A stretch of DNA of 64,000 nt, taken from Zestosphaera sp. (lineage in GTDB: Archaea > Thermoproteota > Thermoprotei_A > Sulfolobales > NBVN01). Every line of letters begins with the position of its first letter. Position 1 is the stretch's first letter. The notes beneath the pieces were generated by a model, which saw only the letters and a list, made by a program, of their open reading frames with translations, ran no database searches and was not told the DNA's origin. A program made the position numbers and the translations under genes. The stretch is from positions 3,634 to 67,633 of the forward strand of contig JAWBSH010000003.1 in the NCBI GenBank assembly GCA_038843015.1. Reading direction: 5' to 3'. This document shows, in pieces, positions 45,126-47,058 of the stretch.

Positions 45126-46415
45126 TCACCTCTTCTTAATTACGTGTACCGCACACGGGATACACGGGTCGTAGGCTCTAATCAGCGCCTCAACAAGCTT
45201 CTTAACTAAGGTGTCATCATAATCTCTCTCATTATCTATTAAGCCCCTTATTAAGGCCTCACTACTAACTTCCAGGTGTTTCGAGAACATTACGGTAGGC
45301 GTTATTATGTCTGCCTTAACTACTCTCAACTCAGGACTTAACTCGTAGTAGTGTATTAGAAGACCCCTGGGAGCCTCGATGACTCCGACCCCGAAACCGC
45401 CTCTAAAGTTGTTGTCATGTTTTACTCTCTTAATCTTTTCCATTTCTAGAGAAGTTAGAGCCTGCAACAAGCTCTCGTATATGAGTAGTGACTCGATTAT
45501 CTTAGCATATATGTTAGAGAAGGGGTTCTCCTTGAAGAACGCCTCATAATTAGTTATTAAGTACCTAAGCTCGTTAGTTGTGTTGAGTCTACCTCTTCTT
45601 AGATAATTGAGTAGCCTAGCTCTAGCACCAGTATAGAAGACTTTCTTACCTGACATTAAGCACTTCTTGCTTGTTGATGAGTCTAGGTATTGCTCGACGA
45701 AGATTTCACGATAATTTCCGTGAATAACGTAAGTGTTTCTGAGTGTGTCTATGACGTAAGGTCCTCCCACAGGCACTGTCACGTTTGGAGACTCTCTTAA
45801 GGAAGCGTATTCTGGAGAGGGATCTGTGAGTTCAGGCAATTCAACACTTAAAACCACGTTAGCTAGTTCTCTCAAATCATTATTCAAGCTCCTCAAGAGA
45901 CTTAAGATTTTCTCAATTACCGTGGGCTTTACGTCTATAGTGAAACCCCCTGGTAGGTAGGTATTCGGGTTAGTTAGTCTGCCTCCCAACAAATTCAAAG
46001 CTTCGGTGACTACTCTGTTTACCCTGAGCAACGTACTCACGTACTTATCGCTCCTGACTAAGTGCTCATAATCCGGTAGGACCAGGAAGCCGAGATGCAT
46101 TATGTGATTCTGGAGAATCTGTAGCTTATTACATGCGTCCCTGAGTGTTGCCGTAGTTTCGTCTACCTTAATTCCCAGGGCTGACTCAATCGCCAGGTTA
46201 GATGCCCAGAAGTGGGCGTGACTGCAGACCCCGCACACTCTAGAAACTACGTAAGGTACTTCCCAGTATTTGCGTCCCTCAACTAATGATTCGAAGGACC
46301 TGGGACTAGCTAAGCTGTTGTACTCTACTCTAACATTCTCTCCCTCGATCTCGATGACGACTTCTGATTCTCCAGCAACTCTAACAATCTCTGAAGAGAA
46401 GAATTTAGTAGTTAT
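45126..46415 (-). CDS. [NiFe] hydrogenase large subunit (start uncertain: no canonical start codon before the conserved N-terminus)
   Basis: RVCGVCSHAH (RxCGxCxxxH) and C-terminal DPCIPCAVH. The frame is open up to 46421. The first ATG/GTG/TTG is the Val codon inside RVCGVC (46238). AGGAGGTGA lies at 46422-46430, followed 6 nt later by ATA at 46413-46415. Confidence 0.8.
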   Translation of the reverse strand: MTTKFFSSEIVRVAGESEVVIEIEGENVRVEYNSLASPRSFESLVEGRKYWEVPYVVSRVCGVCSHAHFWASNLAIESALGIKVDETTATLRDACNKLQILQNHIMHLGFLVLPDYEHLVRSDKYVSTLLRVNRVVTEALNLLGGRLTNPNTYLPGGFTIDVKPTVIEKILSLLRSLNNDLRELANVVLSVELPELTDPSPEYASLRESPNVTVPVGGPYVIDTLRNTYVIHGNYREIFVEQYLDSSTSKKCLMSGKKVFYTGARARLLNYLRRGRLNTTNELRYLITNYEAFFKENPFSNIYAKIIESLLIYESLLQALTSLEMEKIKRVKHDNNFRGGFGVGVIEAPRGLLIHYYELSPELRVVKADIITPTVMFSKHLEVSSEALIRGLIDNERDYDDTLVKKLVEALIRAYDPCIPCAVHVIKKR

Positions 46416-47058
46416 TGCTACTCACCTCCTCTATAAGTCTCCGAAGATTTTGCGGTAAGTAAGTCCAGAAGAAACTTACTAATGACTTAAGTTCACTTAA
46501 GTCTATGTTGCCGTTATAGAGGTTTTTAAGAGCCCAGGCCCATACGTCCTCACTTACAATATAGCCTCTGCACCCAATACATGGAGAACCCCTCCTAGGG
46601 CATTCAGCCTCGCAGCCAGCCACCGTTAACGGACCTAGACACGGAATACCCTTCAGCACCAAGCAAGAGTGCTCACGTAGTGAGCACTCACTACATACCG
46701 GAATACCTTCTACTCCTAGTTTTTTACTGAGGTCAAGCAACTCACACGCTCCTTTCCTCACGCAAGACCAGCACTTAATTTCGTGCGTAGCTAGAAGTAA
46801 TTCTAAGTTGATCTTCCTTAATTTTCTTAAATCACTATCATCGACTATGATTTTAGCGTTTTCAGATACAGGGAACTTACATGCTGGCACAACCCTCCCG
46901 TTAACTTTCACGACACATATTCTGCAAGTAGCCTCGTTAAAAAGTCCTTTAAGGTAACATAGGGTAGGGACTTCATACCCAGCTTTCTCTATGGCATCAA
47001 TAACTAGGGTGCCGGGAGGTACGTCAACTTCGTAATTATTCACGTAAATCTTAACCAT
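46405..47058 (-). CDS. HydA-N/HoxU-like FeS protein ([2Fe-2S] + His-ligated [4Fe-4S]) fused to a [NiFe] small-subunit C-terminal FeS domain
   Basis: [17 protein letters not shown]...PAC (plant-type 2Fe-2S). [14 protein letters not shown] (Hx3Cx2Cx5C). [11 protein letters not shown]...[27 protein letters not shown]. The likely start is the ATG at 47058 (MVKIYVNN); the track ORF begins at 47115. Confidence 0.7.
   Translation of the reverse strand: [217 protein letters not shown]
46422..46430 (-). promoter_or_regulatory. Shine-Dalgarno-like AGGAGGTGA preceding the hydrogenase large-subunit frame
   Basis: Read on the minus strand, within the 3' end of the upstream gene. A similar GAGGTGA element precedes the next gene's GTG at 45120 with similar spacing. 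Confidence 0.5.

Follow-up and report, generated by a model that had tools for sequence, protein, structure and literature searches.

A [NiFe] hydrogenase small subunit split between two HydA-type chimeric proteins in a hybrid hydrogenase operon of Zestosphaera

The operon and its two chimeric proteins

A 64,000-nucleotide (nt) stretch of contig JAWBSH010000003.1 from the archaeon Zestosphaera sp. (assembly GCA_038843015.1), hereafter referred to as the window, contains a hydrogenase operon in which the small subunit of a [NiFe] hydrogenase is divided between two proteins, each half being joined to a different part of HydA, the subunit that carries the H-domain in bifurcating [FeFe] hydrogenases. 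The operon consists of five co-directional, nearly abutting genes on the minus strand, running from position 49459 to position 43792 in the order hydC, hydB, hydD, hyhL and a gene for a 442-amino-acid (aa) fusion protein. The latter (hereafter, the fusion gene; 43792–45120) lies directly 3′ of the gene for the large subunit. The genes and the domains of their products are as follows:

48890–49459, minus strand: hydC, the first gene of the cluster, encoding a NuoE/HoxE-like thioredoxin-fold [2Fe-2S] subunit of 189 aa (Pfam 2Fe-2S_thioredx, E = 2.8e-41)
47064–48887, minus strand: hydB, encoding a NuoF-like subunit of the Bfu type, 607 aa, for flavin mononucleotide (FMN) and NAD(H) (Pfam Complex1_51K, SLBB, NADH_4Fe-4S and two Fer4 domains)
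46405–47058, minus strand: hydD, encoding a 217-aa protein that begins with MVKIYV
46705–47058, minus strand: HydD residues 1–118, the HydA N-terminal module, with a [2Fe-2S] ferredoxin fold and a His-ligated [4Fe-4S] cluster (Pfam Fer2_4 and NADH-G_4Fe-4S_3)
46510–46704, minus strand: HydD residues 119–183, the domain of the medial and distal [4Fe-4S] clusters of a group 3b-like [NiFe] small subunit, with eight Cys (PDB sequence search)
46408–46509, minus strand: HydD residues 184–217, a helical C-terminal tail (loose alignment to the C-terminal helices of complete small subunits)
45126–46415, minus strand: hyhL, encoding a group 3b-like [NiFe] large subunit of 429 aa if translation starts at the ATA codon at 46415–46413 (Pfam NiFeSe_Hases)
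44686–45120, minus strand: fusion gene residues 1–145, the proximal-cluster (flavodoxin-like) half of the small subunit, with the motifs GCDGC, GACA and RGCP (Pfam Oxidored_q6)
44416–44685, minus strand: fusion gene residues 146–235, a HydA-type 2×[4Fe-4S] domain (F-domain) with its upstream linker (HydA match)
43792–44415, minus strand: fusion gene residues 236–442 and the stop codon, a shortened HydA H-domain (Pfam, alignments and motif scan)

HydD combines two parts of different provenance. Residues 3–120 match HydA1 of A. woodii (7q4v_A, residues 7–130; E = 2.5e-23) and HydA of T. maritima (7p5h_A, residues 2–120), and the Pfam models extend over residues 1–118 only, with no model for the remainder of the protein. 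It is within this remainder that a first-pass annotation of the window had placed the C-terminal FeS domain of a [NiFe] small subunit, at 46408–46701. The interval is exact: in the reading direction of hydD, it opens with the first base of the codon for residue 120 (46701; the P of PVCSEC) and closes with the last base of the final residue (46408), and the segment thus corresponds to HydD residues 120–217. The assignment is borne out as well. In a search of all PDB sequences with only the last 100 residues of HydD as the query, every significant match was to a [NiFe] small subunit. In particular, residues 120–183 align with residues 161–225 of the δ subunit of sulfhydrogenase I (SHI) of Pyrococcus/Thermococcus (9nez_A; E = 2e-16, ~60% identity), with all eight Cys aligned, and the same half of the protein also matches MvhG (9sw2_E, E = 1e-6) and 9sfi_I (E = 9e-6). 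Judged from these alignments, the similarity to small subunits is far beyond chance. Furthermore, an alignment of 42 HydD homologs, with identities down to 33%, shows no substitution of any of the eight Cys (C122, C125, C132, C140, C149, C153, C160 and C163) or of L141, G142 and T145, and in the AlphaFold2 (AF2) model of HydD, the tail is predicted to form helices at residues 170–182, 187–197 and 203–213. HydD resembles HoxU of group 3d hydrogenases in that both start with a [2Fe-2S] plus His-[4Fe-4S] module, but in place of the ferredoxin domain of HoxU, HydD carries the small-subunit domain. Collectively, the comparisons point unambiguously to a [NiFe] small subunit, not a HoxU/NuoG ferredoxin domain, as the source of the C-terminal half; the latter possibility, under which the first-pass assignment would have fallen, does not agree with the SHI δ match and the eight aligned Cys.

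The proximal-cluster half of the small subunit, proposed in the same annotation to be encoded apart, after the large subunit, at 44746–45120, is found there indeed. This interval corresponds to residues 1–125 of the fusion protein, in which residues 13–134 match Oxidored_q6 (Pfam, E = 1e-21) and residues 5–130 align with SHI δ residues 5–144 (E = 1e-16). The predicted gene order, C-terminal half, large subunit, N-terminal half, follows directly from the layout of the open reading frames (ORFs). The rest of the fusion protein is derived from HydA: residues 142–285 align with residues 115–264 of T. maritima HydA, including the linker and the start of the H-domain (E = 2.5e-21), and residues 355–420 align with HydA residues 424–497, the C-terminal motif region of the H-domain. 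A [NiFe] small-subunit domain at the N-terminus is hence joined in a single polypeptide to a portion of HydA at the C-terminus, the arrangement that characterizes hybrid hydrogenases. The proposal that each half of the small subunit is joined to a different FeS partner can accordingly be refined: both partners are halves of one ancestral HydA.

A different description of the fusion protein, which is essentially the published one, is that it represents a complete FrhG-like small subunit, so that HydD would be a NuoG-like conduit, with its additional clusters forming an appended side branch, and electrons would leave via the ferredoxin domain of the fusion protein. FrhG of group 3a hydrogenases likewise consists of a proximal-cluster domain followed by a 2×[4Fe-4S] domain of the ferredoxin-like kind, FrhG chains align over residues 4–223 of the fusion protein (9r51_C, E = 7e-11; 3zfs_B, E = 1e-9), and several homologs are named “F420-reducing hydrogenase gamma subunit” by JGI. 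In their description of the archaeal hybrid hydrogenases, Greening et al. (Cell 2024, PMC11216029) assign the three [4Fe4S] clusters of the NiFe component to the hybrid subunit and denote HydD a NuoG-like conduit. However, HydA is colinear with the entire stretch from the linker through the ferredoxin domain into the H-domain of the fusion protein, and the E-value is far better than that for FrhG (see above). A separate search with the 93-residue ferredoxin region retrieved HydA residues 119–205 (E = 2e-16), and the 60 best matches included no FrhG. The derivation of the C-terminal half of HydD from a small subunit also speaks against a complete FrhG-like fusion protein, as does the observation, detailed below, that this half abuts the small-subunit part of the fusion protein without overlap on an actual complete small subunit. 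By ancestry, as judged from these matches, the 2×[4Fe-4S] domain is the F-domain of HydA, not an FrhG-type domain. We therefore rejected the identification of the fusion protein as a complete FrhG-like small subunit and consider the corresponding description of the complex unlikely; for the same reason, the caveat of the first-pass annotation that this protein might already contain an entire small subunit does not hold as far as ancestry is concerned.

Reciprocal exchange between hydA and a small-subunit gene

Alignment to full-length small subunits, suggested in the first-pass annotation, shows how the pieces fit together. On the complete small subunit P0205 (249 aa), residues 5–160 map to the fusion protein (E = 1e-25) and residues 162–216 map to HydD (E = 1e-11), so that the two halves are complementary and abutting. 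When fusion residues 1–145 and HydD residues 119–217 were rejoined in silico and aligned with five complete small subunits, there was no gap at the junction (GNLISVSS/IPVCSEC in the rejoined sequence versus GKIPEIPA YPVCVEC). All 12 small-subunit Cys, four for the proximal cluster and eight for the medial and distal ones, were aligned in the canonical order, as in group 3b enzymes. Reciprocally, HydD residues 1–118 rejoined with fusion residues 146–442 could be aligned with three HydA sequences, again with no gap at the junction (KKLGVEG/RRFSKVG versus EELHVRE RRIRGV). Thus, when the exchange is undone in silico, neither parent loses or duplicates anything at the junctions. Consistently, among solved structures, the nearest relatives of both small-subunit halves belong to group 3b, and those of both HydA halves are bifurcating HydA proteins of the A3 type. 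These results confirm, at the level of sequence, the identity of a split, domain-swapped small subunit.

The simplest route to this arrangement would be one reciprocal crossover between hydA and hyhS, the small-subunit gene, which would produce both chimeras at once. For example, if a circular hyhS-hyhL segment inserted into hydA by a Campbell-type mechanism, the product would be the N-terminal part of hydA fused to the C-terminal part of hyhS, followed by hyhL and by the N-terminal part of hyhS fused to the C-terminal part of hydA. We infer a single-crossover origin of both chimeras as the parsimonious scenario because both junctions are residue-precise and complementary, a pattern that four independent breaks and joins explain poorly. 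The alternative is that the two chimeric genes resulted from two independent fusion/fission events, for instance, if the small subunit was split first and its halves were later joined to an already split HydA. Split HydA-like and NuoG-like proteins are common among the homology matches of HydD, and the gene order is not uniform across lineages (see below), which indicates that the genes moved independently at least after the origin of the system. Against this alternative, nothing is lost or duplicated at either junction, so that one crossover suffices; both halves of each parent share the same nearest relatives; and no intermediate, such as HydD without the C-terminal half of the small subunit beside the fusion protein or a fusion protein with a full small subunit, was found among the 120 and 150 best matches listed or among 80 loci from the Genome Taxonomy Database (GTDB). 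Independent events hence appear improbable, even more so than a complete FrhG-like fusion protein.

The arrangement is widespread in archaea. Clustering at 90% identity gives 86 clusters with the full-length, 217-aa architecture of HydD, and their sources include Zestosphaera, Desulfurococcaceae, Ignisphaera, Bathyarchaeia and GTDB “Sulfolobales”, among other taxa. Of the species representatives in GTDB that were scanned, at least 33 encode full-length HydD, with identities of 33–86% and the metal ligands intact, along with hundreds of ordinary small subunits that match HydD residues ~110–200 only. The hosts among the GTDB representatives and the cluster members are metagenome-assembled genomes (MAGs) throughout, and no cultured host was found among them. 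The comparative genomic analysis envisaged in the first-pass annotation hence had a twofold outcome, namely, the arrangement proved to be conserved, but the intermediates that it was meant to find did not turn up among the loci scanned.

By mapping eight domains onto the GTDB and metagenome loci, we identified four gene orders (C, B, D and L stand for hydC, hydB, hydD and hyhL, SA for the fusion gene). The order C-B-D-L-SA is found in ~25 Thermoproteota loci, including the window. In Bathyarchaeia, the order is C-B-D-SA and L is displaced; the Hadarchaeota locus L035 has SA-C-B-D-L, as do two metagenome contigs that encode a HydB-GltD fusion (L002 and L003); and Thermoplasmatota have C-B-SA-D-L. 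In three of the four, the C-terminal half of the small subunit directly precedes L, in the same way as the small-subunit gene (S) precedes L in unsplit operons (L041–L047). The full five-gene set, with contiguous HyhL, HydB, HydC and the HydD conduit as in the hybrid hydrogenases, is present in the window and in at least 25 related loci. In the Bathyarchaeia loci L001, L027, L029 and L040, the large-subunit gene is not located between hydD and the fusion gene but is missing from the flanking region, lies downstream in inverted orientation (L027) or is separated by several kilobases (L029). An unswapped S-L-x-C-B-A arrangement, where A denotes hydA, is found in the Anaerolineales locus L042. 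A Thermococci locus (L045), considered as an unswapped ancestor with C-B-A beside S-L, was set aside because the product of its “A” is 914 aa long and the NiFe genes are encoded on the opposite strand.

Large subunit, bifurcating core, H-domain and electron flow

Residues 5–423 of the large subunit align with the α subunit of SHI (9nez_D), with a better score for group 3b (E = 2e-36) than for group 3d (E = 1.4e-26), and the motifs RVCGVCSHAH and DPCIPCAVH conform to the nickel-binding patterns RxCGxCxxxH and DPCxxCxxH. There is no in-frame ATG, GTG or TTG codon upstream of the RxCGxC motif, and the ORF finder starts the gene at a GTG inside this motif, which could be taken as a sign of an artefact or a decaying locus, that is, mis-assembly, a frameshift or a pseudogene. 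However, an ATA codon at 46413–46415 (minus strand), which overlaps the end of hydD, is aligned with the TTG start codon of a 79%-identical relative (locus L004), the start codon in relatives at this position being TTG or ATG. A Shine-Dalgarno-like sequence, GGAGGTGA, is located at 46422–46429, 6 nt before the ATA, and the same motif is present in L004. In three of the six assemblies examined, the Prokaryotic Genome Annotation Pipeline (PGAP) places the start at this ATA, which gives a product of 429 aa; other annotations shorten the protein to 370 or 407 aa. We accordingly rejected a frameshift or a pseudogene in favor of an ATA start. Given that HydD of the window is 100% identical to proteins from Zestosphaera sp. 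MAGs on 34 contigs from many samples, an assembly artefact is not a plausible explanation; the hydD/hyhL junction is likewise identical in six independent assemblies, and a decaying locus would not be expected to retain every metal ligand in an architecture that is conserved across at least 33 species. We regard any such explanation as extremely improbable.

By homology, HydB and HydC represent the Bfu core. HydB, which contains an N-terminal [2Fe-2S]-like region and a C-terminal 2×[4Fe-4S] domain, matches HydB of the NiFe enzyme of A. mobile over its full length (7t2r_B; E = 1e-201, ~55–60% identity) and also aligns end to end with NfnB (9n5u_B) and the WOR-associated BfuB (9bov_B). The ligands of the B2 cluster, H525, C438, C531 and C536, are conserved as in Bfu-type HydB, and the His ligand of this cluster has been described as a bifurcation-associated marker (PMC9304861). 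Unlike in Bfu enzymes, BfuA/HydA of the window is not encoded as a single chain with clusters A1–A5 next to a separate small subunit, but is divided over two genes, each part being joined to a half of the small subunit. These features suggest that the five-subunit enzyme is probably an electron-bifurcating hydrogenase of the Bfu/HydABC type.

The H-domain of the fusion protein is strongly reduced in the Zestosphaera lineage, to ~205 aa versus ~350 aa in canonical HydA. The L1 region contains no Cys, its sequence being ARSPVEY as opposed to the canonical TSCCPGW; in L2, the Cys is retained (ITQC), but Trp occupies the position of the CN-binding Lys (K358); ~55 aa of the active-site pocket, including the GATGGVMEA segment, are deleted; and the L3 motif (CPGGCLLGGGQP) is retained. 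The Pfam profile Fe_hyd_lg_C scores 21.5 bits, versus a cut-off of 22.1, and covers profile positions 206–245 only. Because only three conserved Cys remain, out of the four that bind the H-cluster, an H-cluster is unlikely to be present; at most, the domain would hold a [4Fe-4S] cluster on three Cys. The short form of Thermoproteota, including that of the window, lacks the defining feature of a true H-cluster domain, namely, the full set of Cys ligands in L1, L2 and L3, and the H-domain of this lineage is therefore probably a vestigial, non-catalytic remnant. In this respect, it is comparable to HydA of A. mobile, in which a [4Fe-4S] cluster takes the place of the H-cluster (PMC9304861). Longer fusion proteins (476–580 aa), identified in an exhaustive search, retain the L1 Cys, PCxxK in L2 and L3. 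For example, P0251 has SWCP, PCxxK and a full match to Fe_hyd_lg_C (E = 8e-22), and P0254, from a locus of the GltD type, is also a long form, so that the relatives of the fusion protein form a series from full (563–580 aa) to reduced (428–477 aa) forms. An apparent sensory derivative of the same fusion is P0260 (859 aa), in which a receiver domain, a histidine-kinase ATPase, a [NiFe] small-subunit N-terminal domain, a 2×[4Fe-4S] domain and an L3-like motif, CFKKCLTGGG, are combined in a single chain.

From the arrangement of the cluster-binding domains, we infer that the two small-subunit halves would reassemble in trans around the large subunit. Electrons would then pass from the NiFe site to the proximal cluster in the N-terminal domain of the fusion protein, to the medial and distal clusters in the C-terminal half of HydD, to the His-[4Fe-4S] and [2Fe-2S] clusters in its N-terminal half and, finally, to the FMN of HydB in the HydB/HydC core. 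There, H2 oxidation would be coupled to the reduction of NAD+ and ferredoxin, or the reverse, by flavin-based bifurcation or confurcation, as in NiFe-HydABCSL of A. mobile. In this model, the NiFe module would be held on the HydABC scaffold by the two chimeric proteins, which would serve as covalent staples.

Several observations weigh against parts of this interpretation. The structural modeling advocated in the first-pass annotation was informative for one half of HydD only. The AF2 model of the HydD monomer (alignment of 42 sequences) had a mean predicted local distance difference test (pLDDT) score of 77, which dropped to 45–68 in the Cys-rich, small-subunit-derived part, and a Foldseek search of the PDB with this model retrieved HydA/NuoG N-terminal domains exclusively, that is, the N-terminal half was recovered as such but the C-terminal half was not. 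The single-sequence AF2 model of the rejoined small subunit (fusion residues 1–145 plus HydD residues 118–217) was unusable (pLDDT 41). The variation of gene order between lineages makes the single reciprocal event a matter of parsimony rather than proof. With regard to electron flow, the proximal cluster could instead pass electrons to the covalently attached 2×[4Fe-4S] domain, and Greening et al. indeed describe a hybrid subunit with “three electron-relaying [4Fe4S] clusters” (PMC11216029); HydB of the window has Thr, near residue 486, in the position of C476 of A. mobile, one of the five ligands of the B2 [2Fe-2S] cluster, as is also the case in the bifurcating NfnB (9n5u_B). With regard to the H-domain, the retention of three of the four H-cluster Cys leaves some probability of catalytic competence, and related group F enzymes are active in vitro (PMC11216029). 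Taking these points into account, we estimate the probability of the overall interpretation, which comprises the split small subunit with its halves cross-joined to the HydA halves as well as the origin and the roles proposed for the two chimeras, at roughly 75%.

Relationship to known hydrogenases and implications

By its gene content, the operon belongs to the published family of hybrid or Bfu-type hydrogenases and does not represent a novel type. The hybrid [FeFe]/[NiFe] hydrogenase of archaea, which combines group F [FeFe] and group 3f [NiFe] components, has been described as consisting of a HydA-HyhS fusion, HydB, HydC, HydD and HyhL (Greening et al., Cell 2024, PMC11216029). The enzyme of the window shares with it the fusion of a small-subunit N-terminal domain with a HydA-type C-terminal part, the NuoG-like HydD with four FeS clusters, the group 3 large subunit and the NuoF/NuoE-like HydB and HydC, as well as the lineages in which it occurs (Thermoproteia, Bathyarchaeia and Thermoplasmata). 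Furthermore, HydD from the locus with the GltD-fused HydB (L002) aligns with HydD of the window, including all eight small-subunit Cys. The differences are that HydB of the window lacks a GltD domain (Pfam) and that its H-domain is shorter and devoid of the L1 Cys that the longer fusions retain, whereas members of the published family have, by definition, a “true” H-cluster domain. In the published work, the five homologous subunits were modeled as one complex, with 7T2R chain A and the small subunit in 5ODC (chain E) as the source for positioning the cofactors of HydD (PMC11216029); the text leaves the split and the reciprocal swap unstated, and they are implied only by the use of the latter chain for HydD. 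A search of the later literature for “HyhS”, “group 3f” or “hybrid hydrogenase” yielded nothing further.

NiFe-HydABCSL of A. mobile (NiFe-Bfu; PDB 7T2R/7T30; PMC8880783, PMC9304861) shares with the window the Bfu core, with HydC and the closely related HydB, a group 3 NiFe module, a HydA-derived scaffold without the H-cluster and the proposed function of coupling H2 to NAD+ and ferredoxin. However, HydA of A. mobile is one chain of 692 aa, whereas HydA of the window is cut after the His-cluster module. HydS of A. mobile is a separate protein of 179 aa for which no match to the C-terminal half of the small subunit was found in the PDB search, whereas the small subunit of the window retains the medial/distal domain but is cut, and the four pieces of HydA and the small subunit are cross-joined.

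SHI of Pyrococcus/Thermococcus (group 3b; PDB 9NEZ, 9E15 and 5YXY) provides the best solved match for the large subunit and for both halves of the small subunit, and its small-then-large gene order is echoed by the position of the C-terminal half directly before hyhL in the window. In SHI, however, the small subunit is a single chain of 250–260 aa, the partners are the β and γ subunits (HydB/HydG of SHI) and there is no HydA-derived part, whereas in the window, in place of a single-chain small subunit encoded directly upstream of the large one and β/γ diaphorase partners, the split genes flank the large-subunit gene and the partners are NuoE/F-like. In the HydABC enzymes (T. maritima 7P5H, A. 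woodii 7Q4V and T. kivui 8A6T), HydB and HydC are homologous to those of the window and HydA is colinear with the N-terminal half of HydD followed by fusion residues 146–442, but in the window HydA is interrupted by the C-terminal half of the small subunit, the large subunit and the N-terminal half of the small subunit, in addition to the shortening of the H-domain. The T. maritima genes TM1424–1426, ordered hydC-hydB-hydA, match the order of hydC, hydB and the N-terminal part of hydA in the window.

Across P0001–P0172, the names given to both chimeras in public databases say little or mislead; they range from “hypothetical protein”, “ferredoxin”, “4Fe-4S binding protein” and “2Fe-2S iron-sulfur cluster-binding protein” to “sulfur carrier protein ThiS” and “coenzyme F420-reducing hydrogenase gamma subunit”. 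In a paper related to Zestosphaera, a cluster with a homolog of an F420-reducing hydrogenase subunit is classified as “group 3a” (PMC11467010); this is probably the hydrogenase cluster analyzed here, in which case the “group 3a” label looks like a misclassification.

The flanks of the operon contain two further genes of potential interest. Directly upstream of hydC, a gene at 49635–50558 (minus strand) encodes a 307-aa protein with an AbrB/SpoVT-type (PF04014) N-terminus, and proteins of the same size and with the same domain are encoded in the same position in L004 and L005; this protein may be a conserved regulator of the hydrogenase operon. On the opposite side, convergent with the end of the operon, a gene at 42850–43779 (plus strand) encodes a 309-aa protein with two hydrophobic segments, one of them N-terminal, and a C-terminal winged-helix-like region. 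In L004, a gene for a 312-aa TrmB/helix-turn-helix-like protein follows right after the operon, on the strand opposite to it.

The gene system itself was already known, and what is added here is a modest advance: the explicit split of the small subunit, the residue-precise reciprocity of the exchange, the single-crossover model and the degenerate H-domain of this branch. Two unrelated hydrogenase lineages appear to have been welded by a clean reciprocal exchange at domain boundaries, rather than by end-to-end fusion, with every metal ligand of the small subunit intact. A broader scenario, which we put forward tentatively and to which we would assign somewhat less than even odds, is that the whole hybrid family stems from one crossover between hydA and a group 3b-type hyhS, and that the Thermoproteota branch subsequently lost the [FeFe] site, becoming a NiFe-only bifurcating enzyme in which the H-domain is retained as a structural or [4Fe-4S] relay remnant. 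If so, the Thermoproteota enzyme would be an independent parallel to NiFe-HydABCSL of A. mobile, and the view that hybrid operons encode two active hydrogenases would have to be corrected. The enzymes of Thermoproteota may not combine two hydrogenases at all. For annotation, the analysis implies that many database entries for the chimeric proteins are uninformative or wrong, and for enzyme engineering, the alignments suggest that a [NiFe] small subunit may tolerate a split between the proximal and the medial/distal domains. The reconstruction also provides testable models for the electron flow in hybrid hydrogenase complexes and for their origin.

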